A DNA stretch of 64,000 nucleotides from Candidatus Kapaibacteriota bacterium (GTDB lineage Bacteria > Bacteroidota > Ignavibacteria > Kapaibacteriales > Kapaibacteriaceae), in contig JBKJNB010000037.1 of the NCBI GenBank assembly GCA_046595995.1, positions 21,403 to 85,402 on the forward strand, in the 5' to 3' direction. A model generated the notes under the pieces. The model was given only the letters and a program-made list of their open reading frames with translations, searched no databases and was not told where the DNA came from. How positions within the stretch are numbered: the stretch's first letter is position 1; each line of letters opens with the position of its first letter. Shown one piece after another: positions 2,414-62,069 of the stretch. The position numbers were made by a program, and so were the translations under genes.

Positions 2414-3337
2414 CTAATCGAATAGCCTCTTCACTTTACCAACCTTGACCGTAAGTGTTGCATGATGCGTGTGTGAAGCCGTTACTACCGGCGTTACAAC
2501 TGCGCTCTTCTTTGGGGCCTTCTTCTTCTTGCCTTTTGTTGGTTCTACCACTGCGGGCGCTTGCGTGGCCATTGCTGCAGAAGTGGGTAACGCGGCGATT
2601 TCTATCACTAAGCGCTCGTCGCCATTTTTTACGTCTTTTAACTCGTCGCGAAGTGCGCTCATTCGATTCTGCATTAATGCGATGTTCGGATCAGCCGGCA
2701 CTGCAGTGCGCTGGGGTTCTGCCGGCGGGGTCTGCTTCTTTTTCAGTTTTTTCGTTGCCTTCTTCCATGCATCCATGGCCTTGAGGTACTCGGCTTCGTT
2801 CTTAGCCTTCAAAACACTGAGCTGGTCTTCGTCTGGCATTACAACCAAGACAACGCGCATTTGCTGGTTAGCGCGAAGAAGCTCGGTGAGCTCGGCGAGT
2901 TTCTTCTTTGCCTCAGACGTTAGTGTCGACGCATTGCGATCAAAGCCCCTTACCGAAAAAATGGGAGCGTTCTCAAGCACAGTAAAAGCAGTGAAGTTGC
3001 GCTTGAGAGCCCTGAACTTATCAGTAGCACCAATGTCTACCATCTCCTCTTTGCGATAGACGTTGTAGTCCTGAAGCACGAACTTGTGCGGACCCGCTTC
3101 GCTCAGCGTTTGAAGGTATGACCCGTCCTTAGAATTACTGCTTATCGTAATCTTCTTTCCCGATGGCGCGAAGATGTAGATTTTACAACCAACAGGTTTG
3201 CCCGTTGCCTCATCCGTAACAAACCCCTCAATCGTCTGTTGCGCTTGCACAGTTTGAGCGCGCGTAGGAACAGCGACAAATGCCAGTATGAGAGCTAGGG
3301 CTACGAATGTGTTCTGCTTAAATGGTTGAAACCTCAC
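2414..3337 (-). CDS. Exported protein with an N-terminal carboxypeptidase-regulatory-like beta domain and a degenerate OmpA-like C-terminal domain with Lys-rich inserts
   Basis: Likely GTG start at 3337 with AAGGA 8 nt upstream. Signal peptide ALALILAFVAVPTRA|Q, then IEGFVTDEATGKPV (CarboxypepD_reg-like start). FDRNASTLTSEAKKKLAELTELLRANQQMRVVLV resembles the start of an OmpA-like domain. Confidence 0.6.
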   Translation of the reverse strand: MRFQPFKQNTFVALALILAFVAVPTRAQTVQAQQTIEGFVTDEATGKPVGCKIYIFAPSGKKITISSNSKDGSYLQTLSEAGPHKFVLQDYNVYRKEEMVDIGATDKFRALKRNFTAFTVLENAPIFSVRGFDRNASTLTSEAKKKLAELTELLRANQQMRVVLVVMPDEDQLSVLKAKNEAEYLKAMDAWKKATKKLKKKQTPPAEPQRTAVPADPNIALMQNRMSALRDELKDVKNGDERLVIEIAALPTSAAMATQAPAVVEPTKGKKKKAPKKSAVVTPVVTASHTHHATLTVKVGKVKRLFD

Positions 3338-3342
3338 CAGCG

Positions 3343-4110
3343 TTATCCTTTGTTTGAGTTCAGAAATCGGGAAATACCCGACTTGCAATCTTCTGTCTGC
3401 CTTGCCAGTGCATTCATCGATGCTGCATACGTCAGTGCTGCATCCGATGACATACCATGCAAAGCGCCTAACATTTGCTTTGTTAGTGCCATCGCCGTTC
3501 CACTATTGTTGGCTACAGTCGAGGCGAGGGCCATGACGTACGTGTCCAAATTGTCGTCTTCAACTACATCCGAGATGAGTCCGATACGAAATGCTTCATC
3601 GGCTGAAATTGTTGCACCACTCAGAACCAATCGTCGCGCCCGAGCATCGCCAACCTTTTGCAATAGATACACAAGCACAATGGCCGGTATGAAGCCAATG
3701 CGTACTTCCGTATAGCCAAAAAGTGCCTGCGTTCGGCCTGCCACGACGATATCGCATACAGAGGCAAGTCCGCAACCCCCTGCAATAGCGGGCCCTTGCA
3801 CGCGTGCGATGACAGGCTTCGGACACGCCACGACGGTCTGAAACATGTGCATGAGGCGTTTCGAATCTGCGAGATTCTCCATTGCCGAGGCGTCAGCAAT
3901 ACGCTGCAAGGAGTCGAGATCGGCCCCTGAGCAGAATGCCGGTCCTTCACCGCGTAAAACAATAACACGAACACTGTCGTTAACGGCGAACGCCTCGAAC
4001 GACTGCGTAAGATCATCTACCATTTCCGCACTAAGCGCGTTGCGCTTCGTAGGACGGTTCATAGAGATGATGCCAACTGGCCCATCGGTGGTAACGAGTA
4101 CTGTCTTCAT
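3343..4110 (-). CDS. Enoyl-CoA hydratase/isomerase (crotonase), methylglutaconyl-CoA hydratase (LiuC)-like
   Basis: MNRPTKRNAL, FCSGADL, VQGPAIAGGCGL and TEVRIGFIPA are crotonase motifs. ATG 4110 overlaps the upstream TGA (ATGA). Confidence 0.85.
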   Translation of the reverse strand: MKTVLVTTDGPVGIISMNRPTKRNALSAEMVDDLTQSFEAFAVNDSVRVIVLRGEGPAFCSGADLDSLQRIADASAMENLADSKRLMHMFQTVVACPKPVIARVQGPAIAGGCGLASVCDIVVAGRTQALFGYTEVRIGFIPAIVLVYLLQKVGDARARRLVLSGATISADEAFRIGLISDVVEDDNLDTYVMALASTVANNSGTAMALTKQMLGALHGMSSDAALTYAASMNALARQTEDCKSGISRFLNSNKG

Positions 4111-6956
4111 CGGCGGCAAAATACAAACCGTTGTACGGCCGACGTCGTTACACGCACGGCATACATTCCCACAGCAAGGCTGCGGACGTCGAGGTGGATA
4201 ACGTTATCTCCCTCGGTTACGAACACGTCAGATTCGAGCACCCTACGTCCCTGCATGTCGAATACAGCAACAGACCCACTCGAGGCCTCGACACTCGCAA
4301 CTGTAAACGACAGAAAGTCGTCTGCAGGATTCGGATATGGCACTGACACCGACATTTGAGCCGGCTGGCGATTGGTTAACCGCGATGCACGCGCAAGTGC
4401 AGAGTCGCGACTGAGATCCATCGACCACACCATGCGGAACGATCGAACACCGCCGGGCGGTATGGCCGATGTAAATCGCATACCAATCACAACTGCAATG
4501 TCACCTTGCAATGCGAACTGAATACCAGCACCTTGACGCATGAAGCCATCTTTAGCATCGATAGAAATTCCACCGTACGTGATGGCGTTGTTCATGCCAG
4601 CACAAATGGGCAGTGCATCGCTATGCGTCGAGGTTGTAAGACAAGCGACATAAGGTCCGCCTGCATTCGTGGACCACGCACCTTGTATACCCAGGTGACG
4701 TTGTGTATTGTATTCCACCAACTCTGTGCGATTCTTCACTGGCTGAGTGCCAAGATCCCAGTCGAGGAACCACGCAGCTACAACGTCGTGTAATGTCGAA
4801 TCGCTAATATTTTTTAATGTAATGTCCGATACATACACACCTGAATCACCCGAGGCAATGCGTACTACCTGTTCAACTTCGATTCCAATACGCAACGAGT
4901 CTGGCGCTTTGTCGTCTCGCACAATTCCACGTAGTGGGTCTGGACGTGTGAACTTCTTGATGGGAAGGAAGTGATCGTCGGTGCCACGTCCGGCACGAAC
5001 AGAACTCACCACGCGGCCGTCAGAGCCAATCATGAGACCACCCTCGTAGAGCTGCCCACACAACGATCTGAACGTTACGCCAGTACCCTGCGCCCTATCA
5101 ATGTCGACATTTCCAACACGCGTGTTGTCGCCAACAGAGAGCGTAAGTACGTCGTTCTGTAGAATTCTATATCCGGGCGATGGTGTTATGGCCGCCAACA
5201 CTTGCGTCGTTGCACCAGTGGCCGATTGAAGTTGCAGTCTTATGAACGAACTAGTGTCAGTGTCTTTCGTCACGAACAACGGCACCGATACACTGAATGT
5301 GTCGCCCTTTGCCAGTAACCTGCCTTCTGGTGTCTGCGGAATTCCAGCCTGATTCACACCGACTGTCAGTAAGGGTCGGAAAGGGGCCAGGTCTACCAAC
5401 GCCAATGCGGGCACCCAAGCGGCAAGCACGTTACGCAGCCGAAGTGTCGCATAAAGTGTATCACCAATCGTCCATCGCGTGTCGTCTGATGTCGTTGTAA
5501 CGACAAGTGTGTCGAGTTCTACTGAAGGCACGCTGTCCGGACTCACACTCACCGCAGCAAGTGCATCGAGTCTGCCACGTGGCAAGAGGGCAGGAGTTTT
5601 GTCATCGGGGATTGATGTCCACGGAGTCACCGCTACGGCCTCTCGCGCAATCGCGCAAGCTTCGATAGGCGAGAGCATGGGGTGCCGTGAACGAATGAGT
5701 CCGACAACACCACTTACAATCGGCGCAGCACCAGAAGTGCAGCAGAAGCCGCCATACGTACCGTCGTTCGACGTGGTCCATGTGCCCTGACCCGGCGCCA
5801 TTACGTCTACACCCGGTCCTAATGCAGTCATGCCAATGACACGGTCAAAGTCATCTGTAACACCAACGCCTAAAACACCTTTATACGATGCAGGAAAGAA
5901 TGGGGCAGCAGTGCCGTGATTCCCTGCCGCTGCAACAACGGCAACACCTCGCGCAATGGCGTATTGCACGACACTTTCGTCGATGCACGAACGGCTCTGA
6001 CTTCCCCACGAGCAGTTGATGACATCGATGCCGTTCACCGCACAGTAAATCATCGATTCATATCCGTAAACAATTCCACCAATGTTATCTGGCATGGTTT
6101 TCATCGGAACGAGCTTGCATTTATTTGCCACACCCGATATGCCAATGCCATTGTTAACGACAGCACCACAAATGCCTGCTACGCCGGTGCCGTGTCCCTC
6201 TCGCGGGTTATACGTATTGCCAGGTGCTGTGCTATCGTCTGCAGTGCAGAAGTTGTAACCATTGTAATCGTCGATGTACCCATTCGCATCGTCGTCGACG
6301 TTGTTATTTGGGATTTCTCGGTCGTTCACATAGATCGCGTCTTTTAAATCCTCATGCGTCTGCAGAATGCCAGAGTCGCTAATGCCAATCAAGACAGAGT
6401 CGCTGCCGTCCTCGACGTCCCAAGCCTCAAAGACTCGAATAAGCGGAAGCATCCTCTGTTCGGTGCGCAGAGGGTCATCAGGTTCGGACGTTTGTTGCGA
6501 TACGAAGTACGGCTCTGCAACTTCAACATCGCTGCAGCCTGGACGCAACCACGCACTCATCCGTTCGGGTGCAATAGACACATCGGCATACGACACGACA
6601 AACGTTCGCAACAGGTCATCCTCGATACGCATCACGTCGGCACGATGCACCGGAGATTCCTGTAGCATGGCATCGCTATCACGTTTCCATCGAAGTGACT
6701 GGTGAAGGGGCAGAAGGGGTCTAAGAAGTGTGAGGCCAAGGCGCTTGAGAATGGTTTCCGGCGATGATCCCTGCACGGCAGAAGGAGTAAGTCGGACCTT
6801 AAGCGTGCCCGACAACACGGGATTGAGTCTCGTTGGCGGATCTGCAGGAAGTATGCGTTGAGCAATGCAAGGGCTGACAGCGATGAATGCCAGCAGCATG
6901 AGAAGGCTTACCGGGAGAAGGCTTACCGGGAGAAGGTTTACAAAGCGTATCCTCAT
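4107..6956 (-). CDS. Secreted S8 (subtilisin-family) serine peptidase with T9SS C-terminal domain
   Basis: Catalytic triad motifs GISDSG (Asp), GHGTGVAG (His) and CCTSGAAP (Ser), plus oxyanion AAAGN. Ca-loop DDDANGYIDDYNGYNF. CTD runs PYPNPA...VFDMQGRRV...GMYAVRV. ATG 6956 overlaps the upstream TAA (TAATG). Confidence 0.92.
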   Translation of the reverse strand: MRIRFVNLLPVSLLPVSLLMLLAFIAVSPCIAQRILPADPPTRLNPVLSGTLKVRLTPSAVQGSSPETILKRLGLTLLRPLLPLHQSLRWKRDSDAMLQESPVHRADVMRIEDDLLRTFVVSYADVSIAPERMSAWLRPGCSDVEVAEPYFVSQQTSEPDDPLRTEQRMLPLIRVFEAWDVEDGSDSVLIGISDSGILQTHEDLKDAIYVNDREIPNNNVDDDANGYIDDYNGYNFCTADDSTAPGNTYNPREGHGTGVAGICGAVVNNGIGISGVANKCKLVPMKTMPDNIGGIVYGYESMIYCAVNGIDVINCSWGSQSRSCIDESVVQYAIARGVAVVAAAGNHGTAAPFFPASYKGVLGVGVTDDFDRVIGMTALGPGVDVMAPGQGTWTTSNDGTYGGFCCTSGAAPIVSGVVGLIRSRHPMLSPIEACAIAREAVAVTPWTSIPDDKTPALLPRGRLDALAAVSVSPDSVPSVELDTLVVTTTSDDTRWTIGDTLYATLRLRNVLAAWVPALALVDLAPFRPLLTVGVNQAGIPQTPEGRLLAKGDTFSVSVPLFVTKDTDTSSFIRLQLQSATGATTQVLAAITPSPGYRILQNDVLTLSVGDNTRVGNVDIDRAQGTGVTFRSLCGQLYEGGLMIGSDGRVVSSVRAGRGTDDHFLPIKKFTRPDPLRGIVRDDKAPDSLRIGIEVEQVVRIASGDSGVYVSDITLKNISDSTLHDVVAAWFLDWDLGTQPVKNRTELVEYNTQRHLGIQGAWSTNAGGPYVACLTTSTHSDALPICAGMNNAITYGGISIDAKDGFMRQGAGIQFALQGDIAVVIGMRFTSAIPPGGVRSFRMVWSMDLSRDSALARASRLTNRQPAQMSVSVPYPNPADDFLSFTVASVEASSGSVAVFDMQGRRVLESDVFVTEGDNVIHLDVRSLAVGMYAVRVTTSAVQRFVFCRR
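6901..6936. repeat. 15-bp tandem duplication (AGAAGGCTTACCGGG x2 plus partial) inside the S8 signal-peptide coding region
   Basis: Identical units at 6901-6915 and 6916-6930; encodes LLPVS-LLPVS-LL. Confidence 0.9.
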
Positions 6957-9805
6957 TAGCGCACCACAATGAGTGGCAGTACTGCAACCTTTCCGGCTGC
7001 GGACAGGATGCACCTGTATGCTCCCACTACTAGCGATGATGTTTTAATGATCGACGTACTTCCAGCGTCGGCACTGACAGCGTAAACGACGATGCCACAA
7101 GCATCGACGAACTGAATGTGTTGTGCACCATCGGGATGATCGACGATTACATAGTCTGAAGCTGGGTTCGGTCGCAAGGTGGCTCGAAGCGTTGGTGTCG
7201 GCTTACCTACCGATTGCGGATTTGATAACGTGTTCATCACGTTTTTCGACGCCTCGTTCGCTGTTGCACCAACACCAACGACAACAATAAAGGTCTGTGT
7301 TTCGTTCGCCGAAAGCGTACCTGGAAACTTCATTCCGACAACGCCCCAGACATCTCCGGTCTCACTAGTCTGAATCGAGTCACCACTTGTGAGCACCAAC
7401 ACGCGATCTGCATCGGTGAACCCATCGCCGTCACCGACATAGGTAGCCAGCAGGCCAGCTGCTGCCTGCGCCTGGGCTTGGGAGTTGACTGTGTGCACCG
7501 CCATGACAACTGCAGCATTAACGTTATCACGCGTAACGACCATTGCCGTACTTGGCTGTGCGGCAAACGCCGTTGGGATGGCTTCTGGTGCAATTCTAAT
7601 CTGGTTATTTGCTCCGATGGGGCCTATATCAACATCGAGATAATAACCAGCGGCAATATCGTGCAGGTCGCCGCCAGATGTGTTCTTTACTGTCACCGTC
7701 CATACAGTCGTTTTAGAGGTGCTAGATGGGAATGTGCATCGTTGGGAAATGAGCACACCAATGCGTCGCAAGGTGTCAACATCTGCATCTGACATTTCGT
7801 TGCGCTCGCGTTCGGGGAAAGAGAACTGCTTTGTCGGAGTAAAGTCAGATCGGAACGTGTTGTTAGGGTACGCTCCAAGACCCTTTGTGCCCCCTTCGCA
7901 TATGAGAAAGCCAGACGGAGACATAAGGGAGAATGAAGGCTTCCAGTTGAACCCAAGGCCACGACGGTCAGTCATTGCATCATCGATTGCAACGAGTCCG
8001 TTATCGCCCATAGAATAAATCAGCTCGTCGTTCTCGAACGTTGCCATCGACGATGGCTGCGGCAGATAATGCAGCTGATGGTCGCTATACGCATCTGCTT
8101 CAAGATTTAGTCGAAGAATGGCTGGAGCATCATCGATGGCATCTACGACTACGAGAAACGCAGGTGTAGTAGTGGTGGCACCCGAAGCGAGGTCGCCAAT
8201 AACAACATCATCGGTTAGTACGCGCATCTTCCAACCGCTACCACCCGACACAACAAGATTACACGTGAGTGCACGCACTGGTGCAAGTACGTTTTTGAGA
8301 TTGAACCTCAGTACAAGCGTGTCGCCAACACCGATGCGCTCTACTGGTAAGCCGTTTGTGTGATGTTCTTCGACAGACTTCACAACAACTGCGGGTACTG
8401 AGAACGGATCTCTCGTCATAGCCAACTTAAGATCGATACGTCCGGGAAGAGCGATAGGGAAACCTGCGTTGCGATCGGAAATATTCCTGGTCGATGCTCG
8501 CACAAGCGATCGTACCTGTTCGACGTTCAGCGAAGGATACTTCGAGCGAATTAGACCGACCATGCCCGTTACTTGTGGCGCGGCGAATGAAGAGCCTTGA
8601 ACGCCTTGTGTCGTATAGCCACCACCGGCCGACGTTGTAAGGGCAAAGCGACCAGGCGCAAGCACATCAGCGTTTAGACCAAGGCCAGTTATGGATAAAA
8701 CGTTGTCTGCTGCATCTGTCTCACCTACGCCTATCACACCGTTATACGCGGCTGGGTAGTTGCGCCAAGCCCATGCAGCACCAGGAAATTGGTCGCCATG
8801 GTTGCCAGAAGAGGCAACAACAACAACGTCGTTCTCTTCACAAAAGTCAATTACCGATTGGTCGATTGGCGATGCTGGTTTTACATAACCCCAGGAACAG
8901 TTCACGACCTTGAAGCCTCGTGCGACAGAGTATATCAGTCCCTGATAACCATAGGAAAGTCCACCAGTAACAATCGATGATGCCTTGAGTGGAAAAATTC
9001 TGCATCGTCGTCCGATACCAGCAATGCCTACGCTGTTGTCAGAGGTTGCACCAGCAAGCCCAGCCACCTTTGTGCCGTGTCCGTCATTACCGTTGTTACG
9101 TGTATCCCCCGGCTTGGTGTTGTCATCGCGCCACGCAAGGTTGTAACCATTGTAATCGTCGACGTAGCCGTTGGCATCGTCGTCGATGGCATTAGCTGGT
9201 ATTTCGTTTGTGTTTATCGCAATGCTCGGAGCCAGGTCTTCATGTTGCTGGTCCATGCCGTTGTCACAAATGCCCATCACAACAGACGTATCGCCTATGC
9301 CTGAGTCCCATGCCTCGAATGCATTAATGATACTCAGGTATTGCTGATCGACAACGAACGGGTCGTTTGGTGTGTTGTGCAGTTGGTCGATATACCACGG
9401 CTCTGCATACTCAATGGCGTCTGCGTATTTCGTCATAAGCAGGCGTGACGCCAGCATCGGCGACATGCCAGCACTAATCGTTACGACGAATGTCCGTTCC
9501 AGTTTTTCGCGCGCGGGGGCCGGCGGACGTAAATTCGGCGCCGATTTTGGGAAAGACTGTCCAGTAGGGGGCAGAAAGGGGCTAACGACGCTGAAGCCCA
9601 GGGGCAAGACATTGTCAGCAGCTTCGGTGGTACGAGCGGTGCGGAATCGGACGTGGAGGGCCTTGGCAGCCATTTGTACAGGAACGCCCTGCCAGGTCGA
9701 CGAGATGACGTCTGGCTGTGCACGCATGCCCGGAATGCAGAACGAGGTCGCCAAAGCCGCCATTGCAAGGCTTCTTATTAGACCTTTTCTGATGTGTTGC
9801 CTCAT
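6956..9805 (-). CDS. Secreted S8 serine peptidase with T9SS C-terminal domain (paralog of the downstream gene)
   Basis: GICDNG (Asp), GHGTKVAG (His), QGSSFAAP (Ser) and ASSGN. Contains DDDANGYVDDYNGYN. CTD LRPNPA...FVDACG...GAYRCIL. Domain order matches 4107-6956. Confidence 0.92.
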   Translation of the reverse strand: MRQHIRKGLIRSLAMAALATSFCIPGMRAQPDVISSTWQGVPVQMAAKALHVRFRTARTTEAADNVLPLGFSVVSPFLPPTGQSFPKSAPNLRPPAPAREKLERTFVVTISAGMSPMLASRLLMTKYADAIEYAEPWYIDQLHNTPNDPFVVDQQYLSIINAFEAWDSGIGDTSVVMGICDNGMDQQHEDLAPSIAINTNEIPANAIDDDANGYVDDYNGYNLAWRDDNTKPGDTRNNGNDGHGTKVAGLAGATSDNSVGIAGIGRRCRIFPLKASSIVTGGLSYGYQGLIYSVARGFKVVNCSWGYVKPASPIDQSVIDFCEENDVVVVASSGNHGDQFPGAAWAWRNYPAAYNGVIGVGETDAADNVLSITGLGLNADVLAPGRFALTTSAGGGYTTQGVQGSSFAAPQVTGMVGLIRSKYPSLNVEQVRSLVRASTRNISDRNAGFPIALPGRIDLKLAMTRDPFSVPAVVVKSVEEHHTNGLPVERIGVGDTLVLRFNLKNVLAPVRALTCNLVVSGGSGWKMRVLTDDVVIGDLASGATTTTPAFLVVVDAIDDAPAILRLNLEADAYSDHQLHYLPQPSSMATFENDELIYSMGDNGLVAIDDAMTDRRGLGFNWKPSFSLMSPSGFLICEGGTKGLGAYPNNTFRSDFTPTKQFSFPERERNEMSDADVDTLRRIGVLISQRCTFPSSTSKTTVWTVTVKNTSGGDLHDIAAGYYLDVDIGPIGANNQIRIAPEAIPTAFAAQPSTAMVVTRDNVNAAVVMAVHTVNSQAQAQAAAGLLATYVGDGDGFTDADRVLVLTSGDSIQTSETGDVWGVVGMKFPGTLSANETQTFIVVVGVGATANEASKNVMNTLSNPQSVGKPTPTLRATLRPNPASDYVIVDHPDGAQHIQFVDACGIVVYAVSADAGSTSIIKTSSLVVGAYRCILSAAGKVAVLPLIVVR

Positions 9806-9844: not shown

Positions 9845-11470
9845 ATGATCATGATCGACCAGCAAAGTTTCCTCGTTACAGCGCGAAAGTGGCGGCCCCT
9901 CCGATTTGCCGATGTTGTTGGCCAGGAGCACGTAACCACCACGCTGAAGAATGCCATCCGATCTGGACGCATTCATCACGCATATCTTTTCACCGGCCCG
10001 CGAGGCGTTGGGAAGACGACGTGCGCCCGCATTCTTGCCAGAGCCGTTAACTGTCAGTTCTCCGTCGACGATGAACCCTGCAACGTGTGTGCCACGTGTA
10101 GGGACGTTTTGGACGCCAGAAGCGTAGACGTCATTGAAATCGACGGGGCTTCAAACAATAGTGTAGACGACGTGCGGAAACTACGGGAGAACGCCAAATA
10201 CGCTCCTATGAGCGGACGGTACCGCATGTACATCATCGATGAAGTACACATGCTTTCGACGGCAGCATTTAATGCACTCCTAAAGACCCTTGAGGAGCCC
10301 CCTCCGCATCTGATTTTTGTGTTCGCTACCACCGAAATTCACAAGGTGCCAGCCACGATTCTCAGTCGATGCCAGCGCTTCGATTTCCGTCGAATGGAAA
10401 TTGACAGCATCGTGAACCATGTAGCGCATATCGCTGCGGCTGAGAGCATTCTAATTGATGACGAATCGTTGGTTTCGGTTGCGAAGAAGGCCGACGGTTC
10501 GATGCGTGATGCTCAGTCGATCTTCGATCAGCTCGTTTCGTTCTGCGGTACCGACATCACCTATCAGGACGTGGCCAACGCGCTGCATCTGATCGATCTC
10601 GACTTCTTCTTTGCCTTGAGCACCGCCGCACGCACACACGATGTTGCGCGGATGTTCGAGCTGGCACGACAGGTGATTGCCGGCGGACATGATGTGCAGG
10701 AGGCTCTCGTCGGCTTGCTGGAACACTATCGTAACATACTAACTGTTATTACAACATCGTCGACAGACCTTATTGAAGCATCGAGTGCGTTTCTCGAGAA
10801 GTACACGAACGAGGCATCGCTGAATACGAAAGCCGATGTACTTCGCATTATGACGTTGATATCCGCAGGCGAAGCAGTACTACGCCAGAACCCACCGCAG
10901 CCGCGCGTCAGGTTCGAATTCACACTAGTTCAGATTGCTGCAATGGATTCGACGGTGGACCTTGCCCAGCTGCTGTCACGCATATCGGCCACACCATCAC
11001 CGGGTCCGGTCGGCGGTACATCCATGGCCGTTAAGCTCGGCAACCCGATGCAATTGCGTCCGCTAACAGTCAGAGCAACGAAGGTGAAAGCTGCCTCTTC
11101 TGCTGTAAATGCAATGTCCTCGCTCAACCTGGCAGAACGCTGGAATCAGGTGCTCGAGCAACTGCCCGAGCACCTTGCCTTTGTGAAGTCTGCGATTAAG
11201 CAACAAATGCTATCCGTCGAGTTCAACGAAGTGTCGATTATTCTGCAGCCTTCGGCTGAAATAATTGCACATCGCATCGAAGACAAGCGCGCCATGCTTC
11301 GCGAGCACCTAACGTCTGTATACGGCGCACCTGTTGGAGTGCAGTTGCTACCCACCAAAATTCCGATACGTATAACTGTAGATGCCGGCAACGCTCAGGC
11401 GTTGATGTCGGACGAAATTCTGCCCATCGAGCAAACATTGATCGATCTGTTTAAGGCGCGTCGTGTATGA
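9845..11470 (+). CDS. dnaX: DNA polymerase III subunit gamma/tau
   Basis: ARKWRPLRFADVVGQ, Walker A GPRGVGKTT, Zn motif CQ...CNVCATC, IIDEVHML and SRC motif. Start ATG 9845 or 9851. Confidence 0.97.
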   Translation: MIMIDQQSFLVTARKWRPLRFADVVGQEHVTTTLKNAIRSGRIHHAYLFTGPRGVGKTTCARILARAVNCQFSVDDEPCNVCATCRDVLDARSVDVIEIDGASNNSVDDVRKLRENAKYAPMSGRYRMYIIDEVHMLSTAAFNALLKTLEEPPPHLIFVFATTEIHKVPATILSRCQRFDFRRMEIDSIVNHVAHIAAAESILIDDESLVSVAKKADGSMRDAQSIFDQLVSFCGTDITYQDVANALHLIDLDFFFALSTAARTHDVARMFELARQVIAGGHDVQEALVGLLEHYRNILTVITTSSTDLIEASSAFLEKYTNEASLNTKADVLRIMTLISAGEAVLRQNPPQPRVRFEFTLVQIAAMDSTVDLAQLLSRISATPSPGPVGGTSMAVKLGNPMQLRPLTVRATKVKAASSAVNAMSSLNLAERWNQVLEQLPEHLAFVKSAIKQQMLSVEFNEVSIILQPSAEIIAHRIEDKRAMLREHLTSVYGAPVGVQLLPTKIPIRITVDAGNAQALMSDEILPIEQTLIDLFKARRV

Positions 11471-13026
11471 TAGACACACATGCACACATCGACGCAGCGG
11501 CATTTGACGAGGATCGCGACGTAGTGCTTCAGCGTGCGTGGGACGCGGGCATGGTTGCGATCGTTGTGCCCGATATCAAGCCGACGGATCGTGCCCGCCT
11601 CATCGAAATCGTGGACAGCGATCCGCGACTGTATCGCGGGATTGGTATTCATCCGCACGACGTAGGCAATGCCTCGGCGGCCGACCTCGATGAAGTAGAG
11701 CGCCATTGCACCAACCCAAAGGTCGTTGCAATTGGTGAAATCGGCCTCGACTACTATTACGACTTCTGTCCGCCGGACATTCAGAAGTCGTATTTTCGTA
11801 ACCAGATTCGCATCGCTAAACGTAATGGCCTGCCCGTAATCGTGCACAATCGCGAGTCCGATACCGATGTTCTTGACATCCTCGAAGACGAGCAGGACGG
11901 CACGCTAAAAGGCGTTCTGCACTGCTTTTCGGGCGATACCAGTGTCCTTGAACGCGCATTGCGCATTGGTATGCACGTATCGTTCACAGGCAATATCACG
12001 TTCAAACGTTCGACTCTGGACGATGTCGTTCGAGCGGTACCAGCCGATCGTTTTATGATTGAGACGGATTCTCCTTTCATGACGCCGGTGCCCCATCGGG
12101 GGAAACGGAACGAACCGACCTATGTTCGTCTCATTGCACAAAAACTTGCGGAGATCCGAGGAATGACTCTTGACGACATCATCAGCACGACAACCATGAC
12201 TGCAAAACGGTTCTTTGCCATTGCATCGTTCTTCGTCGTGATCTGCACCGCGGCCGTTGCTCAGCCCAACGTCCCACGCGAAGACGACTTCGAAACCGAC
12301 GTTGCGTACGATAACGCCATGATAACCTATGAAGCCGATAGCCTTGCATGGGAACGGTGGCTAAAGCCTCGCAAGATTGGTTTTGGCCCCGCCATTGGTA
12401 CGAATACAATCGTGGAGGGCAAACAGTTCACACAGCGTTTTGAACCTAAGACGCCAGTGAATTCGCCAACACAATGGACGATGTATCCGGACGGAACGGG
12501 TCCGAAGGTCACAGAATCGTTCGAAGGCCTCGTGGCATTCGGTGGAACGGCAACGTATGGCTTAACCGATCGCATGATGGTTGAGGGCACCTACTTGTAC
12601 ACGCGAAACGAAACGCCGGCCAAGAACTTTGGTCTCGACCCGATCGTGACGCATATCATTGAAACGGCGCTGCACTACTCGTTGAACCCCTATGGCCGCC
12701 TCAATTTTATCGCAACGGGCGGTGGCACCTTGGCTCTTACGAACGACGGCACCTCGACAACGACAAAGCTCGGCGTGAACGTTGGCATGGCATTGGGAGC
12801 AAATATTCCGACGTCGTTTGGCCTGTTCTACCCAATGATAACAGTACGATTCAATTTCATGCTTGGCACAGATAAGAATCGCGTCGTTGTCAGATACGCA
12901 GACCCAGTGACGGGTCTGCCCATTGAGAATCCGGATGTTCCGGGCCAGTTTTCTGAGTCTCGAGCAGACGTTACCACGTTGTACGCCATCCCCCGATTCA
13001 CCCTGCTGTTCTACCCTAAGTTCTGA
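11467..13026 (+). CDS. tatD: TatD-family nuclease fused in frame, through an internal signal-peptide-like segment, to a predicted outer-membrane beta-barrel
   Basis: Residues ~1-250 carry all TatD motifs (DTHAH, GIHPH, GEIGLDYY, VHNRE, HCFSG, ETDSPF). Residues 244-265 read MTAKRFFAIASFFVVICTAAVA|Q. Residues 266-519 show alternating hydrophobic beta-strands and end in Phe (LLFYPKF). Confidence 0.85.
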   Translation: MIDTHAHIDAAAFDEDRDVVLQRAWDAGMVAIVVPDIKPTDRARLIEIVDSDPRLYRGIGIHPHDVGNASAADLDEVERHCTNPKVVAIGEIGLDYYYDFCPPDIQKSYFRNQIRIAKRNGLPVIVHNRESDTDVLDILEDEQDGTLKGVLHCFSGDTSVLERALRIGMHVSFTGNITFKRSTLDDVVRAVPADRFMIETDSPFMTPVPHRGKRNEPTYVRLIAQKLAEIRGMTLDDIISTTTMTAKRFFAIASFFVVICTAAVAQPNVPREDDFETDVAYDNAMITYEADSLAWERWLKPRKIGFGPAIGTNTIVEGKQFTQRFEPKTPVNSPTQWTMYPDGTGPKVTESFEGLVAFGGTATYGLTDRMMVEGTYLYTRNETPAKNFGLDPIVTHIIETALHYSLNPYGRLNFIATGGGTLALTNDGTSTTTKLGVNVGMALGANIPTSFGLFYPMITVRFNFMLGTDKNRVVVRYADPVTGLPIENPDVPGQFSESRADVTTLYAIPRFTLLFYPKF

Positions 13027-13652
13027 TGCAATCGAACCTGACTGTCCTGGCTGGATCGGCATTGATGCATGATCTGGCAATCGTTCGCGATTCGCAAACA
13101 GAGATGGCGGCATTCAGGGCAGCAATTAAGCGCATTGGCATCCATCTCGCTGCAGAGGTTTCGAAGTATCTGCCATCGTATGAACTAGAGATAGACACGC
13201 CCAACGAGCGGACCCGTGTTTCAAAGCTCGACGGCAATCTTGTCCTTTTACCGGTATTGCGTGCTGGCCTAGGTCTACTCGACCCCTTTCTGACCCTTCT
13301 TCCCGAGGCCTCTGTAGGTTACATCGGATTGCGCCGCGACGAAGAGACCCTAGAACCACACACCTATTACAACAACGTTCCTGCGCACGCTGGCACTTGG
13401 ACTGCGGTTGTTCTAGACCCGATGCTGGCCACCGGCGGTAGTATGGTGGCAGCACTTAACTCCTTTGCTTCAAAGCCCCCTACGCGCATCTTTGCAGCCG
13501 CACTTATTGCTGCTCCGGAGGGCGTAGAACGGGTGCAGAAGGCACACCCCAATGTTCACCTTGTGGTTGGGGCCATGGACCGATGCCTCAACGAACGCGG
13601 CTTTATCGTGCCAGGGCTCGGTGACGCCGGCGACAGACTCTTCGGCACTTAA
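13026..13652 (+). CDS. upp: Uracil phosphoribosyltransferase
   Basis: PVLRAGLG, IGLRRDEETL, PRPP motif VLDPMLATGGS and C-terminal FIVPGLGDAGDRLFGT. TGATG overlap with the upstream gene. Confidence 0.97.
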   Translation: MQSNLTVLAGSALMHDLAIVRDSQTEMAAFRAAIKRIGIHLAAEVSKYLPSYELEIDTPNERTRVSKLDGNLVLLPVLRAGLGLLDPFLTLLPEASVGYIGLRRDEETLEPHTYYNNVPAHAGTWTAVVLDPMLATGGSMVAALNSFASKPPTRIFAAALIAAPEGVERVQKAHPNVHLVVGAMDRCLNERGFIVPGLGDAGDRLFGT

Positions 13653-13684: not shown

Positions 13685-13936
13685 ATGTATGTTGAGCAAG
13701 AGCTGTTTCATCACGTCTTTAGGAGGTTAGCCGTGACAACGATATTTCACTTCGGCCGGCACAACGTGCCATTCACTGATATCCACGATATCAACGTAGA
13801 ATACAAGTACCACGACAATGAGATCTTCGTCGACCTTGAGTTGAACGGCGGCGCTCAGCTAAGCCTGAACCTGCCAGACTCGGTAACGTTTATGGAGCAA
13901 TTCATAAAAAAGATTAAGGACGAAAAGGGCGTTTAG
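13685..13936 (+). CDS. Small hypothetical protein (83 aa)
   Basis: The ORF fills the gap between upp and a convergent gene and has globular-looking composition. No family recognised. Confidence 0.65.
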   Translation: MYVEQELFHHVFRRLAVTTIFHFGRHNVPFTDIHDINVEYKYHDNEIFVDLELNGGAQLSLNLPDSVTFMEQFIKKIKDEKGV

Positions 13937-13948
13937 CCCTTTCGACGT

Positions 13949-15121
13949 TTAAACAAGAAGAGGTCTTTTAGACTTCTCGTATTCGCCTATTGCGGAACAG
14001 AGCGCTTCGAGGTCATGCATCGAAGTGTGCGCCTGAACGCTGAACCGTAGTATTCCTCGACCCAGCCACGATTGCACCACCACTTCTATGCTGTGCACAT
14101 CGAGCAACCAGTGCTTTAGATCGTTCGTCGGCCAGTGCGATGGCAATAACACCGCACCCATTTGCAACACGTCATCATCGGTGTCTTGAAGCATGCGTTC
14201 GATGCCGGGAACGCACGCTAACATATCCATCGTATCTGCACGCATCTGCCGGCATACTGCTTGCACAGTTTGCCATTCATTTTTGCGCATCCACTCGATG
14301 CCATCTGGTACCGTAAGAAATGCCGACACGTCTCGCGTGCCCAAATACTCATGTTCGTCTAAGAAGTCACTCGTGCCGAGCGTGTCGCCCATTGCGCCCC
14401 AACTAACTGTAAGCGACGGTATTTGCCGCTGAAGTTCTTTGCGCACGAACAGAAACGCAGATCCCTTCGGCGTACACATCCACTTGTGGCAATTCGCGGT
14501 GTAGATGTCAGCATCGATATCTGCGAGGTTCAATGATATCTGACCTGGAGCATGCGAACCGTCGATTACCGTAATGATGCCGCGCTCTCGTGCTCGTAAA
14601 CACAAGGCCTTCACATCAATTCGAAGCGCTGTTGGCGATGTTATGTGGCTTACAAACAACACACGTGTTTTTTCTGACACCCCCGCCCAGATTAATTCGG
14701 TTACGTCACGCATTGGGGGAAGGGGCATAGAAAGGGGCTGACGCACAATGCGCACGCCTTTGCCTTGCAGGTGCTGTTCCCATGCACGATCGCAAGCGCC
14801 GTACTCATGGTCGGTGGTTAGCAGTTCGTCGCCCTGCCGCAGTATACTCGACAACCCATAAGCCGCGACGTTCACGCCGTACGTAGAGTTCGTAACGAAT
14901 ACCAGATCGTTCATATCGCAACCAACGAACTCACCTAGTGCGCATCGCGCGTCGGCCATGTAGTTCTTTAAGTCGCGAAAGAATGCAACTGGCTGCAGCT
15001 CCATCTTCGCTTGCCATGCGCGTTGCACATCAAGGAGTTCTCTGGGAGTAGCGCCAAACGAACCGTGGTTTAGAAAGACCACATTTGTATCGAGCAAGAA
15101 ATCTGCTTTCGAGAGCATCAA
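13949..15121 (-). CDS. PLP-dependent class V aminotransferase family protein (isopenicillin-N epimerase / cysteine desulfhydrase / Egt2-like)
   Basis: FLNHGSFGATP, SHITSPT, IDGSHAPG and the Schiff-base lysine in ANCHKWMCTPKG. Confidence 0.85.
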   Translation of the reverse strand: MMLSKADFLLDTNVVFLNHGSFGATPRELLDVQRAWQAKMELQPVAFFRDLKNYMADARCALGEFVGCDMNDLVFVTNSTYGVNVAAYGLSSILRQGDELLTTDHEYGACDRAWEQHLQGKGVRIVRQPLSMPLPPMRDVTELIWAGVSEKTRVLFVSHITSPTALRIDVKALCLRARERGIITVIDGSHAPGQISLNLADIDADIYTANCHKWMCTPKGSAFLFVRKELQRQIPSLTVSWGAMGDTLGTSDFLDEHEYLGTRDVSAFLTVPDGIEWMRKNEWQTVQAVCRQMRADTMDMLACVPGIERMLQDTDDDVLQMGAVLLPSHWPTNDLKHWLLDVHSIEVVVQSWLGRGILRFSVQAHTSMHDLEALCSAIGEYEKSKRPLLV

Positions 15122-17127
15122 CGAATGCGCGCCAGAACAGAACGTCGTGCCATTCTGCGCATTGGTGAGTCGCCAACCGCTGCCGATGTGCTGTGCGTGT
15201 CTGTCGTAACGGCCTTAGATCTCACTCCGAGCAGCGCTATGGCCGCTTGCGCGCGCTTGCGACGCAAGAGCGTGTTGTGTGCTTCAGTGCCTAAGTCATC
15301 GGTTTGCGGAACGAGTGTCACACTACGTCCTGCAGCAATGGCTTCACGTACAACGCGCACACCATCATCGTTCGTTGAGGTAAACTCTGCGCCATCGAAG
15401 CCGAAGTATCCGAGCACTACAGCGTCTGCTGCGTCAGCGGCCTCGTCTAACGATGTGGTAAGAGTGATGACAGAATCTTTAACACTTCGTACAGTCCCGC
15501 GAAGATGAAATGCACGAGCACTGACGACTGATTTGTCATCGTTATCGGTGAGAGACGCACGCACCTGAATAGCTATCAACTCAGTAGTGTCCTTGAGTTC
15601 CGACGCAGGAATACGGAACGATCTGAATGCATCCGTACCTGTTAGGATTACGGGAATGGCGTCTATCGATGCCCGTATCTCTTGCGTACACGGACCTGCT
15701 TCGCACTCAATGATGTTCACGATGCGCACATCAATGTCCGATCTCGTCTGCGAGCTCGCAAGAACGCTGTCGACATCGACAACCTTGCCAACACCATCGA
15801 TTTCAATCCTAACAAAACGTTGCTCATCGAGAAGAATCGGATGCTTGGGTTCTGACAATGCGAGTGTTCGCACCTCTACGCGATTCGGATCGAGGCCGAG
15901 CTGACGCGTTGTCCACAACACACGTTCGCGCGCCACACCCGGCACTTCGTCTGTTGCGCTCGTGGCAATAATCGTAATGCGCGAATCGGGATGCTCGTTA
16001 GCATATGTGCGTATGGCCGAAAGCACGTTCTGTTGTAGCGCAATCGCGGGCGACGATGAGGCCACAGGGACTGTGCTGTTTCTTTCAAAGAACATCACTG
16101 GCGCGGCTTGCACAACAGCAACACGGCGTACCACATCGAACAGTGGCACGATTGTAGTATCGTTTACAGATGTAACGCCGGCTGCATCGACGGTTACTGT
16201 TAGCTCGCTACGCAACACACGTGAAATGGGAGCAGGTGGCGGCGGAGGTGGCGGCGGAGGGGGTGGCGGAGGAGGAGGAAGTGGTGGTGGCGGCGGAGGA
16301 GGAGGAGGGGGAGGTGTTGGACGCGGCAACGCATACTGAAACGACACACCGAACCGCACAGCACTCACAGACCAGTTTGTGTTTCGAACTACATTCGTGA
16401 ACGCATGCTGATACTGCAGCTCTGGCGTTACTGTAAGCGAGCGACTTGTGTGCAACTCGTATCGTAATCCAACTAGCCCAGCGAGATAGAGTGGCTCAAC
16501 GTCCGGTAGAGGTCCGGCAACACTTCCGCGCGTACGCGAGCCATTCTCAAAAGTCCATTCGGCTCCTGCTGGTTGTAGCAGAAGTTCGCTTTGCTCGTAA
16601 CTCTTGCTGAGAGGTATGCCTGCCATGAATCCAACTTTCATACGAAATCCATTAGCGAAAGGGAAACCAAATGCAACGTACGGCTCAATGCCGAGAACGC
16701 CATAGTTCGCAGCGATACGATGCTCGGATGTCCCCTTCGACACTTCCTGTTCGCGGATAATATTACCAACGAATTCCGTTTCATGTAAAGCACCGGTCAG
16801 CAAACTGTACGAAAGGCTAGCTCCCACACGTATTGGCAAACCTGCTAGCGCATACGACGGGTCGTATTCCATACCCAGCACAAGGGCACCGCCGAAGCCA
16901 AGCTGACTGCCATACGTAACGCAGCATTCAGGGACTTCGGGGAGCCGTGCAAACGATGCATTATGAAAGTTTGCGCTTCCATAAATGCCCCCCTGCACGA
17001 ACAGCTTCGAGGGTTCACGTTCTCCTGTCTCCGTCTGCGACGATAGCTGAGATGCTACGAACGGCAGAAGAATGAATAGGGACAGCACATTCATGAAGTA
17101 GCGAGCAAATCCACGTTGGACCAACAT
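15118..17127 (-). CDS. Outer-membrane beta-barrel, polyproline linker and OmpA-like domain(s)
   Basis: Signal peptide, then amphipathic strands ending AVRFGVSFQY, then P11-L-P15. The C-terminus FGFDGAEF...QTDDLGTEAHNTLLRRKRA is an OmpA-like peptidoglycan-binding motif. A more degenerate OmpA-like segment (FFERNST...ARERV) lies upstream of it. Confidence 0.7.
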   Translation of the reverse strand: MLVQRGFARYFMNVLSLFILLPFVASQLSSQTETGEREPSKLFVQGGIYGSANFHNASFARLPEVPECCVTYGSQLGFGGALVLGMEYDPSYALAGLPIRVGASLSYSLLTGALHETEFVGNIIREQEVSKGTSEHRIAANYGVLGIEPYVAFGFPFANGFRMKVGFMAGIPLSKSYEQSELLLQPAGAEWTFENGSRTRGSVAGPLPDVEPLYLAGLVGLRYELHTSRSLTVTPELQYQHAFTNVVRNTNWSVSAVRFGVSFQYALPRPTPPPPPPPPPPPLPPPPPPPPPPPPPPPAPISRVLRSELTVTVDAAGVTSVNDTTIVPLFDVVRRVAVVQAAPVMFFERNSTVPVASSSPAIALQQNVLSAIRTYANEHPDSRITIIATSATDEVPGVARERVLWTTRQLGLDPNRVEVRTLALSEPKHPILLDEQRFVRIEIDGVGKVVDVDSVLASSQTRSDIDVRIVNIIECEAGPCTQEIRASIDAIPVILTGTDAFRSFRIPASELKDTTELIAIQVRASLTDNDDKSVVSARAFHLRGTVRSVKDSVITLTTSLDEAADAADAVVLGYFGFDGAEFTSTNDDGVRVVREAIAAGRSVTLVPQTDDLGTEAHNTLLRRKRAQAAIALLGVRSKAVTTDTHSTSAAVGDSPMRRMARRSVLARIR
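16234..16314 (-). repeat. Low-complexity polyproline-encoding tract (27 codons: P11-L-P15)
   Basis: G-rich on + strand and CCN codons on - strand. All four Pro codons are mixed, so it is not a pure microsatellite. Confidence 0.95.
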
Positions 17128-20100
17128 CAGCGTACGACGATGAAGGACGCTGCTGCCGTAGCATCGCCAGTTGCAAGGATTACTGTGTACACGCCCGGCG
17201 TCAGAGCCGAAACATGTAGTGTGTGCGTCGATGCGATTGGTCCCGACGAAACCAATACATTCTCGAAGACAACAATGCTATTCGCATCTACAATTCGCAT
17301 AGTTGCAATAGTTGTCTTCTGCGATTGTACCTGCACGTCTACGTAGTCTGCTGCAGGGTTGGGTTGTACCGACGTAATAGCAAGTGATGCTCGGTCGAGA
17401 ATCTTGCGTCCCGGATTCGGATTCACTATGCGTAGCACACCATCGGTATACGCATTAGAAACGCTTGCACCGAACCATGCCGACGTAGTGTCTAGTACGA
17501 GTAATGATGAGTCGGCGCGACCTAAACCAGCCGGACCAACAAGACGCGCAATCTCGTTCGTGTCTCCGAATACGCCTTCGACCGTGAATCGCACAATGCG
17601 TGCATTGTTTATGATATCCTGAGAGACGATAGTCGCAGTACCAACCGTTGCCTGAATCTCCTGTGCGAGGAATAGTTGCGGATCGACAGAAAACGAACCT
17701 TCCACGCGCCGCATGCCGTTGTAAGGAACCTCTTCACTAAGATCTGCAAGAATGGGAATGGTGGTGTTTGTTCGTGGATCAGCCGAAATAACTGGAATAC
17801 TGAGCTTTACCGTGCCTCGATAGAGTGAAAGCGGTATGTCCGCAGAAGTAGCGCATGGTTCGTATTGCAGTGCAAGGGCGGCTGGTGCCCCAACACTACC
17901 GCCATCGTATCGCACAGTAAGCGTCACCGAATCGCGCGCACCGATAACCAACGGCATCGTACTCAGAAGGCTGAAGGGGGCTCCGGCGGTTATCATGCCC
18001 GACGTAATCGTTACGGCATTGTCAGAAGAGTTGTAAATAGTAATCGTACGCAGCGGTGCTTCCGGAATAAACGGCAATGCCGTGTGCGATAGACGCACAT
18101 CCGCGCCAGCGCCACGTCCCGTTACGCGCCACATACGACGCACTGTGTTTTGGTCTGCATAACGGATTACCACCGAAGCCGTGTCGAATCCTGTACGAGT
18201 TGGAGCGAACTCAACTTCTATATCAAGCGTGCCGCCAGGTGGTAACGTCGTGTCAAATACGGCATTCATGACTCTAAACTGCGCTGGCACCTTCACCTGG
18301 GTGTTATTGATGCGAACTGAGTCTGCACCCGTGTTGCGAAGCATGGTAAATTTCTTTATCAGCCGCTGTCCAACACATACGTCGCCGAAGTCAGTAAGGT
18401 CACCTACGATAGCTAGGCTACGATCGATACGCTGCAACTCGAAGGGAATGCGGAAGACAGTGCCGCATGACACCACGAGCAGCGTATCTGCAAGGCGCCC
18501 AGTGTCCGCGATAACTGCGCGAATGCGAAGGTCGAGACACTCACCAACGAGAAGCGTATCCGTAAGAATGCCATCGGGTAGCGTAAACACCTGTCCGCTC
18601 TGGAACGAACCGCTGCTCACAACAACCGGTACAGTGCCCGTGTTGCAGATGCGGCCGTTCAGCGTTGTATCGAGCACACTACCAATTAACACAGGAGGTA
18701 ATGCGACTATAGCGTTTCCTAGTTGCGAGCCGATGATGCCGAAGACACCATCGGATATATCGTCTTCGGGTGTTGTAAACTTCTTGAGAAGCACGTTGTT
18801 TGTGGAGTCGAGCGATGTTGAGACGATTGCATTGCCGACCTGACTAAAGTCTAGATCAGACAGTAACCCAATGTGACCCAAAGATCCAGTAAGGGACTGT
18901 AGCCGCACGCCTGACTCCACGTCGTACAATTCGAATTGCTCCTGGCCCATGAAGCCAAGACCGAGATAACGTGCTGTCGGACTAAATGCGCATGCAACCT
19001 GCGTTATCGCGCCCACGCGATTAATAACCTGACGCGGCATCGACGTTGCTCTGTCGATCATGTACGTAGGATTGCTTGCCGATGCGCGCCCGCCAAGAGC
19101 GGCAAGGCCTGTGGTTGATATGTCGATGTTGTCGATTACAGCGTAACTGTCGGCCGCGAAGTTTGTCGGCGTTCGTTCAGCCTCTTGTTTCGTAGACGCA
19201 TCGTACGTAACGATGCTACCGTCAAGCTGCATGACAGTAACGCGGTTCCTCCGCATTGTTGTAGCCGATGCAGGGGCGTTCAGTATTATAGAAGCTGTTG
19301 AGTCGAGTGTCGCGGCCGCATACGTCAGAATACGAGATCCTAGCTGCGGTACAACAAACACTGTGGTTCCTGCACTGTCGGTGCCAACGGCTGACACACG
19401 CATGCTACGCGGTAACGCAACGCGTGCAACAGGCGCTGCGATACCCTGGCTAAACTGCTGAAGCTCTGCGGCTGCCCCCGCCGAAGTACGTATCGCCGCC
19501 ACCAGATTGCTGGTGCCAGGCACATAGGTAATCGATGCGACCATTGCGTTCCCCGCAACATCTGCTACATCGTACGTGCCAATGATCTGAGCTGTGGCGG
19601 TAGAGAACTCAACTATTTTACGATTGGTGTACCCGACGGCGAAGCGTGATCCATCTGCCGAAAACGAAACGGTTGTTGTAGGTACACGTTCGCCAACTGC
19701 AAAGCGATCGAAGTTTGATTGAAGTCTTTGTGAGACACGTATCCGAGCGCTATCAGACAATGTCGGTGGCACAGTCCACACATACGACGAGTCTATCGTA
19801 GAGTCGATACTCCTCCATGACCTGCCATTGTTCGTAGACAGTTCGAGAAACACCGAGTAGCCCCTTTCCATACCCTTCCAACGGACGATGACCTTCTGAC
19901 ATGGCGCGAATTTTTCGCCTCCATTCGGCGAAACCATTTGCAGAATGGGCGCACGCGGATACGGTGCCGGGTTCGCAAGCAGCAGGATGTCTTCGCGGAA
20001 TCCATTCGAGTAGTATGCCGACAGTATATCAGCAACCGGGGCGTCGGTAAGTGGCTTGAAAATGAGATTTAATCGATAGTCGAACGCAGGTACCATGTCA

Positions 20101-62061: not shown

Positions 62062-62069
62062 TGTGAACC

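Follow-up and report, generated by a model that had tools for sequence, protein, structure and literature searches.

Organization of the Locus

The analyzed window is a stretch of 64,000 nucleotides from a Candidatus Kapaibacteriota bacterium (GenBank assembly GCA_046595995.1, contig JBKJNB010000037.1, positions 21,403 to 85,402), and all coordinates given here refer to this window. On its forward strand, a single open reading frame (ORF) spans positions 11467..13026 and encodes a protein of 519 amino acids. This protein starts with a TatD hydrolase, continues through a predicted internal signal peptide, and ends with a predicted outer-membrane β-barrel. The ATG of the fused gene overlaps the stop codon of dnaX (ATGA, 11467-11470), and the TGA at its end overlaps the start codon of upp (TGATG, 13024-13028). 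Both overlaps were confirmed; an earlier reading of this DNA, made without database searches (hereafter the sequence-only reading), had taken them as coupling of the gene to its two neighbors.

The fused gene was found across a whole branch of Ignavibacteria/Kapabacteria-type bacteria. Its relatives were analyzed as 118 aligned proteins belonging to two clades, a near one (84 proteins) and a distant one (34 proteins). To judge from its sequence, this one gene apparently serves two cell compartments, which would be very unusual for bacteria.

The TatD Hydrolase Domain

The TatD/YcfH-type metal-dependent hydrolase domain occupies residues 1-250 (11467..12216, forward strand). The 253-position Pfam model TatD_DNase (PF01026) covers residues 2-250 with an E-value of 2e-77 (260 bits, cut-off 27), and TIGR00010 covers residues 1-251 (252 bits, cut-off 206). 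The metal ligands H5, H7, E91, H127, H152, and D201 do not vary among 45 aligned relatives. The two models and the six ligands bear out the sequence-only reading, in which a complete TatD with all metal ligands and no stop codon was described. By these matches, the N-terminal half is a genuine member of the TatD/YcfH family, and hydrolase activity is predicted for it.

Unfused TatDs, represented by 102 relatives, end 0-12 residues past the equivalent of F250 in the ...LF motif. The fused ORF, having 519 residues and no stop after TatD, does not encode a stand-alone soluble protein of ~260 amino acids: its chain runs past F250 into FFAIASFFVVICTAAVA|QP and 254 more residues. The last TatD helix (residues ~235-250, ...TTTMTAKRFF) supplies the positively charged N-terminal region (n-region) of the predicted signal. 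In the full-length AlphaFold2 model, a single continuous helix comprising residues 235-264 leads from the end of TatD through the hydrophobic segment. The predicted template modeling score (pTM) of this model is 0.46, and the TatD and barrel domains are therefore considered independent.

The Predicted Outer-Membrane Barrel Domain

Residues 266-519 fold as a β-barrel in an AlphaFold2 model built from a 26-sequence alignment (predicted local distance difference test score 90.6, pTM 0.79), with a helix followed by 9-10 long strands. In a Foldseek comparison with the PDB, the best 24 matches were all outer-membrane barrels (OmpT, OmpA, NspA, Ail, OprG, OmpW, OpcA, and Pla). The Foldseek probability was 1.0 for the top barrel matches, but TM-scores were 0.3-0.6 and identity was 6-13%. 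The domain of 254 residues with barrel-like strands and a terminal Phe that had been recognized earlier thus turned out to be a confidently predicted barrel.

The Pfam family PF13505 (OMP_b-brl) stays below threshold for the window protein (14-16 bits at a gathering cut-off of 28.7) and matches 12 of 26 relatives at E ≤ 0.01, the best E-value being 2e-9. A profile search of PDB sequences with the barrel gave only insignificant OmpX/Ail matches. The barrel is best described as a divergent OMP_b-brl relative, not as a scored Pfam member; within the OMP_b-brl class, it forms a new family of narrow distribution.

The predicted barrel proper comprises residues 303-519 (12373..13023, forward strand) with ~9-10 long strands. 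By size it belongs to the small barrels with 8-10 strands, and no evidence of a large pore was found in it. The chain ends with YPKF in a C-terminal β-signal-like strand, ...IPRFTLLFYPKF (12994..13023). The final position is occupied by F, W, or L in 110 of the 118 relatives, and the C-terminal motif SIPR[FL]T..[FW]YP.F is conserved. The barrel is preceded by the acidic N-terminal segment of the mature protein (residues 266-302, 12262..12372), in which AlphaFold2 places a helix at residues 278-302. The motif ED[DE]...DS.A[WY]..W[IV]KPR of this segment is conserved in the near clade, and the median net charge of the first 30 mature residues is -7 in the 118 relatives.

The barrel was found almost only behind a TatD domain. 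Thus, a search of 1.84 billion representatives with the barrel profile yielded 74 proteins, and all the long ones carry the barrel after residue ~266-298. A word-based search with the barrel alone yielded one truncated fragment and nothing else. A true stand-alone homolog, P0278 (251 amino acids; locus L032, 2488-3243), has its own ordinary N-terminal signal ending with A|QNQ, and the barrel is therefore an autonomous exported unit. P0278 is the sole homolog of this kind and lies among glycosyltransferase genes, away from tatD and upp. Two other apparent stand-alone barrels, P0267 and P0281, both starting with MTTKNAK..., were rejected as gene calls cut at contig edges and not separate genes.

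The Junction as a Predicted Signal Peptidase Site

The junction contains the hydrophobic and cleavage-site regions (h-region and c-region) of a predicted internal signal for the Sec pathway and signal peptidase I (SPase I), residues 249-265, at 12211..12261 of the forward strand. This hydrophobic segment of 15-17 residues, FFAIASFFVVICTAAVA, ends with AVA and is followed by QP. The predicted cut falls between 12261 and 12262, i.e., at A265|Q266, where an AxA cleavage site behind a hydrophobic segment had been proposed before. Gln occupies position +1 in 116 of the 118 relatives; in the remaining two, an A|Q site follows three residues further on. Ala was found at position -1 in 111 relatives, and position -3 is A, L, V, S, G, or T, with a few M or I, in all of them. 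The stretch after F250 is exactly 15 residues long in 85 of the 118 relatives, the 8 residues preceding it (n-region) have a net charge of +1 to +3 in 114, and the median Kyte-Doolittle hydropathy of the h-region is 2.0. The putative cut site is the best-conserved feature of the junction, and by these features the junction corresponds to a Sec/SPase I signal. The signal begins at about residue 245 of the full-length chain and would be N-terminal only in a product started at Met233 or Met244. A twin-arginine (Tat) signal was considered and rejected: RR was found in only 23 of the 118 relatives, the query has KR, others have KN, RT, RA, or QS, and the RR of an S/T-R-R-x-F-L-K motif is not conserved.

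Nine ordinary SPase I-type signals were found in the window, and seven of them have Gln at +1 (x-A|Q). The corresponding ORFs, all on the reverse strand, are located at 2414-3388, 4107-7013, 6956-9805, 15118-17127, 17127-20726, 41254-43761, and 60727-62175. The genome therefore follows the Bacteroidetes Q-rule, which suggests the presence of a glutaminyl cyclase. For Ignavibacterium album, a Q-value of 77% was reported (Bochtler et al., PMC5837995). Several of the window proteins with Gln at +1 look like cargo of the type IX secretion system.

Alternatively, the protein could stay uncleaved as a bitopic or envelope-spanning protein: TatD would face the cytoplasm, a single transmembrane helix would follow, and the C-terminal domain would remain attached in the periplasm or the outer membrane. 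Many bacterial membrane proteins have such a type II topology, with the N-terminus in and the C-terminus out, and the continuous AlphaFold2 helix of residues 235-264 would fit it. However, so short a hydrophobic stretch (15-17 residues), combined with a near-invariant A-x-A|Q, marks a cleaved signal and not an anchor; signals and anchors differ in the length of the h-region (PMC2120157). The Gln at +1 can be explained only if cleavage occurs (PMC5837995), and in distant-clade proteins the first strand is often preceded by a linker of only ~12-25 residues, too few to span the periplasm. The short h-region and the fixed +1 Gln therefore disfavor an uncleaved anchor, and we consider this topology very improbable.

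Conservation of the Fusion

A search with the full-length protein yielded more than 110 clusters of 475-560 amino acids (defined at 90% identity), which align with 100% of the query length at identities as low as 40%. Named clusters are labeled as "TatD family hydrolase" of Kapabacteria, Ignavibacteria, or Bacteroidota. The median identity is 67% in the near clade and 60% in the distant clade for TatD, and 48% and 33%, respectively, for the barrel. The near clade is characterized by AQP and the acidic helical segment, and the distant clade by AQx and a short acidic linker. In all complete loci, about 35 from many studies, one open frame runs from IDTHAHID to the end of the barrel. The search for conserved fusions in related genomes that the sequence-only reading had proposed was thus positive.

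A sequencing or assembly error, or a recent stop-loss, that merged two ordinary genes was also weighed. Two independent soil metagenome contigs from different studies, X1 and X3, cover 11894-12564 and 12147-12516, respectively, and differ from the window by substitutions only. Since they contain no indels, there is no miscalled base or hidden stop at the junction, for which a check had likewise been advised. The same frame in more than 110 clusters and about 35 loci excludes the accidental loss of a stop codon that had been listed as one of three options. In addition, unfused TatDs end exactly where the hydrophobic segment begins, which leaves no room for a separate start. No point supporting an artefact was found, and its probability is negligible.

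Several deviating copies were observed. In P0122 (337 amino acids, on a 1.2-Mb NCBI contig) and in P0124, P0125, and P0127 (309 amino acids), the family frame is left after TatD ...LF, inside the hydrophobic segment, and unrelated sequence follows. These are likely frameshifts or assembly errors within the part that codes for the signal, or possibly real truncations consisting of TatD with only a hydrophobic tail. Locus L028, from the same metagenome-assembled genome as L026, is a second, partial barrel-upp copy on a short contig, whose frame closes early at 578; it probably reflects strain heterogeneity or a mis-binned contig. Six carriers of the gene (L006, L008, L016, L027, P0044, and P0089) are labeled as Hyphomicrobiales, Didemnitutus, Patescibacteria, Chitinophaga, or Bradyrhizobiaceae, which are probably taxonomic mislabels or result from bin contamination.

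Probable Internal Translation Start

The sequence-only reading had also proposed a nested in-frame gene starting at Met244 (12196..12198, forward strand). This position is Met in only 2 of the 118 relatives, has no start-capable codon in the closest GTDB genome (L001), and no motif resembling a Shine-Dalgarno (SD) sequence was found upstream of it in the window. Met244 is thus lineage-specific and was rejected as a conserved start. The nested gene itself remains supported in principle by another codon, the ATG of Met233 (12163..12165, forward strand), which has an SD-like GGAG 9 nt upstream (12150..12153), formed by the last base of the Ala228 codon GCG and the Glu229 codon GAG. A start at Met233 would yield a 287-amino acid barrel precursor with a 33-residue signal peptide and the N-terminus Met-TLDDIISTTTMTAK. 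Conservation of this Met and its co-variation with GGAG suggest that Met233 is probably an internal translation start in most near-clade members, including the window.

Met was found at the 233 column in 69 of the 84 near-clade proteins and in 19 of the 102 unfused TatDs (19%). At the DNA level, ATG233 is present in 25 of 29 near-clade loci, with GGAG 9 nt upstream in 24 of these 25. The codons before Met233 in 26 near-clade loci follow the pattern AAA nnn GCG GAG ATh nnn GGn ATG, and GGAG occurs in 24 of the 26. In a synonymous-constraint scan of the near clade, the top outliers among 166 conserved TatD codon columns were codon 228 (GCG in 22 of 22, pooled frequency 0.27) and codon 226 (AAA in 25 of 26). 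Codons 229, 224, and 232 were also among the top 15 columns, and codons 226-232 form the strongest cluster in the TatD-coding part, its peak of constraint being 3-27 nt upstream of ATG233. The control consisted of 72 unfused TatD genes from a metagenome scan with the distant-clade alignment, which matched almost only unfused TatDs. In this control, the equivalent positions are unbiased (GCG 29%, GAG 51%, AAA 51%), and an SD-like motif together with ATG233 was found in 2 of the 72 genes (3%), in contrast to 92% here.

The motif and the start codon are also lost together. Locus L004, the only one of the 26 loci without ATG233, lacks GGAG as well and has GAGGAG, 5 nt, and GTG at codon 235. In three near-clade loci picked because their proteins lack an internal Met (L119, L120, and L121), GGAG is missing and neither ATG nor GTG occurs 5' of the hydrophobic region; signal, AQP, and barrel are intact in all three. 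In total, GGAG and ATG233 are absent together in three lineages (L119/L121, L120, and L004), and the two co-vary (24/1/0/4, Fisher p ~2e-4). From -114 to -60 nt before the Q266 codon, a region containing ATG233 at -99, mRNA structure is weaker than in synonymous shuffles. In the distant clade, whose DNA was analyzed in 8 loci, Met was found at 240/241 in 34 of 34 proteins, compared with 2 of the 102 unfused TatDs, and GAGGT is located 7 nt upstream of it in 4 of the 8 loci.

These observations bear on the possibility that the barrel is made only from the full-length chain through SPase I, with GGAG...ATG233 serving as a pause site or another RNA-level element. It agrees with the missing stop, the conservation of the A|Q site, the persistence of the system in lineages without any internal start, the low use of SD motifs in the genome, and the fairly common occurrence of Met233 in unfused TatDs. 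The position of the strongest synonymous constraint just upstream of ATG233, the joint loss of motif and codon together with the compensating GAGGAG-N5-GTG of L004, the rarity of the combination in unfused TatD genes, and the distant-clade Met240/241 argue against it. We regard this account as one with a modest chance of being correct.

Proposed Biogenesis

We propose a dual-route model, which we consider somewhat probable. A conserved two-compartment gene would produce a full-length precursor cut at A265|Q266 and, in addition, a shorter product from the internal Met233 start.

In the first route, common to all members of the family, ribosomes starting at the TatD ATG, in coupling with dnaX, would always make the 519-residue chain. 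Since the overlap is in frame and no stop occurs before codon 519, initiation at this ATG leads to the full-length chain, and the strong conservation of the TatD active site implies that this chain is certainly made. TatD would then fold in the cytoplasm, and the hydrophobic segment continuing its last helix would act as an internal Sec signal, with co-translational targeting as it emerges. The positive n-region would remain inside, the h-region would cross the inner membrane, and the acidic C-terminal 254 residues would be translocated. After SPase I had cut at A265|Q266, the released barrel protein would probably have a pyroglutamate N-terminus, like other Q-rule substrates, and would be inserted in the outer membrane by the β-barrel assembly machinery (BAM) via its C-terminal aromatic strand. 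TatD would be left at the cytoplasmic face of the inner membrane with the signal peptide as a C-terminal membrane tail, and could either stay tethered or be freed by later degradation of the tail. Of the options in the sequence-only reading, the SPase-cut polyprotein is the one to which this route corresponds. It gains indirect support from the near-invariant A|Q, the match to the Q-rule, the missing TatD stop, and the lineages without an internal start.

In the second route, proposed for most near-clade members including the window, GGAG and the ATG of Met233 would allow internal initiation, resulting in the 287-residue barrel precursor without TatD. Barrel output would thereby be uncoupled from the weakly expressed TatD, whose translation is coupled to dnaX. 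Three lineages without ATG233 and GGAG keep the signal and the barrel, and therefore the full-length route must suffice there.

One could also suppose that only the internal start gives rise to the barrel, essentially as a nested gene. In this case, the full-length chain would be unproductive, i.e., not exported, not cut, or degraded, and useful TatD would be the uncleaved fusion or a proteolytic fragment. Such a scheme would be consistent with the conserved internal SD-like motif and ATG and with the clade-specific conserved Mets. However, TatD can be obtained solely from the full-length chain, and its catalytic residues are strongly conserved; the signal in this chain is, by its sequence, fully competent; and L119-L121, which have no recognizable internal start, keep the signal, A|QP, and barrel. 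The internal start as the only source of the barrel thus seems unlikely.

Several points weigh against the dual-route model. The analyzed loci are related by phylogeny, several being near-duplicates, so that the counts and p-values overstate their independence. SD-like 4-mers were found upstream of ~15% of naively called gene starts and in 6% of the background; SD use is thus rare in this genome, and GGAG could be a pause site or another RNA element instead of a ribosome-binding site. The reduction of mRNA structure is modest, and a comparable peak is found at about -200 nt, ~100 nt further upstream. The signal of the product started at Met233 would have an unusually long n-region of 16 residues with a net charge of zero. 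As for the first route, efficient Sec targeting behind a folded N-terminal domain of 250 residues is an assumption, and a hydrophobic tail of 15-17 residues may not be long enough for stable anchoring of TatD in the membrane.

Genomic Context

Upstream of the fused gene lies dnaX (DNA polymerase III γ/τ; 9794, a putative start, to 11470, forward strand), identified by the Pfam domains DNA_pol3_delta2, DNAX_ATPase_lid, and DNA_pol3_gamma3. The downstream gene, upp (13026..13652, forward strand), encodes uracil phosphoribosyltransferase (PF14681, E-value 3e-60). In most related loci, dnaX sits 5' of the fused gene, and upp was found directly 3' of it in both clades. The gene order dnaX-(ahpC)-tatD::barrel-upp-small ORF recurs in the near and distant clades. 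The AhpC/redoxin gene between dnaX and tatD::barrel overlaps the TatD start in many relatives (L033, L036, L119, L120, and L121). The window has no such insert, and dnaX overlaps TatD directly.

The small ORF in the window is located just 3' of upp (13685-13936, forward strand) and encodes 83 amino acids. It has no Pfam match and is strongly conserved: its identity is 100% in L001, where neighboring proteins have ~88%, and 41-87% across the near clade. A small ORF was also called at this position in L119-L121. An Rfam scan of the window gave no matches. RNA data consisted of four short metatranscriptome contigs from a related strain.

Possible Functional Meaning

One interpretation goes beyond biogenesis and treats the fusion as a functional partnership rather than an overlap that is simply tolerated. 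In this bacterial class, every TatD would be born as a two-compartment polyprotein; cleavage would serve to keep TatD at the inner face of the inner membrane, the barrel made with it would go to the outer membrane, and the pair, encoded beside upp, would act in an envelope process, such as the handling or salvage of incoming nucleic acid. A nuclease-porin arrangement, possibly for uptake and salvage of nucleic acid, had also been suggested in the sequence-only reading. The conserved neighbor upp is the single support for nucleic-acid uptake or salvage; the predicted topology keeps TatD on the cytoplasmic side, and the small barrel gave no evidence of a large pore. We regard this partnership as doubtful; if true, it would be the first bacterial case in which an enzyme of the cytoplasm and a protein of the outer membrane arise from a common obligate precursor.

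If the proposed biogenesis holds, several other consequences follow. This would be a natural bacterial example of a signal peptide that acts behind a folded cytoplasmic enzyme, 250 residues into the chain. One half would be sorted to the inner membrane, on its cytoplasmic face, and the other to the outer membrane, which bears on how the signal recognition particle and Sec pathway, SPase I, and BAM deal with non-canonical substrates. TatD would be membrane-tethered across a whole class of bacteria, giving a new angle on a ubiquitous and poorly understood enzyme. The gene would also be an example of overlap within one frame, the last residues of one protein forming the n-region of the signal peptide of another, with an apparent internal ribosome-binding site written in synonymous positions. 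For annotation, proteins of ~480-560 amino acids named only "TatD family hydrolase" in databases hide a whole family of outer-membrane proteins.

Comparison with Known Systems

No relevant description of a TatD fused to a barrel or having an internal signal peptide was found in the literature. To our knowledge, no known case joins a cytoplasmic enzyme and an outer-membrane barrel in such a way.

The first 250 residues match the TatD/YcfH/YabD family of metal-dependent hydrolases and 3'-5' exonucleases over its full length, score highly, and have all metal ligands. A link of this family to DNA polymerase III clamp-loader genes is also shared, being represented in the window by dnaX and in Escherichia coli by ycfH following holB. 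Known TatDs are soluble proteins of ~255-270 amino acids that end 0-12 residues past ...LF, whereas the fused chain continues to a signal and a barrel. With the OMP_b-brl class (OmpA, OmpX, OmpW, and OmpT; PF13505, MBB clan), the C-terminal domain shares a predicted closed antiparallel barrel and the C-terminal aromatic residue. It differs from this class by its own conserved acidic N-terminal helix and by a signal that is internal to a larger ORF.

The junction of the fused gene resembles SPase I substrates that follow the Q-rule, with a near-invariant +1 Gln after an A-x-A-type site (PMC5837995, PMC10653852). The Q-rule was described for N-terminal signals, whereas in the fused gene the site is preceded by 265 residues.

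Viral polyproteins with internal signals show a similar processing logic. In bacteria, a similar case is FbcH of Bradyrhizobium japonicum, a cytochrome b/c1 polyprotein that is reportedly split at an internal signal peptide, as Thony-Meyer et al. are said to have described in about 1991. In both cases, one bacterial ORF encodes two mature proteins separated by an internal Sec-type signal, the cleavage being predicted for the fused gene. The FbcH products are membrane subunits of one complex, whereas here a soluble-type cytoplasmic enzyme is combined with a barrel for a different membrane.

In-frame nested genes with internal starts include those for IF2 alpha/beta, ClpB 93/79, and the long and short forms of CheA. 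As proposed for Met233, a second start with an SD-like motif in the same frame gives a shorter product. In these systems, the short product is an isoform of the same protein, truncated at its N-terminus and acting in the same compartment. In contrast, the second product of the fused gene would be exported and unrelated to TatD, with a signal formed by the last part of the enzyme encoded upstream.

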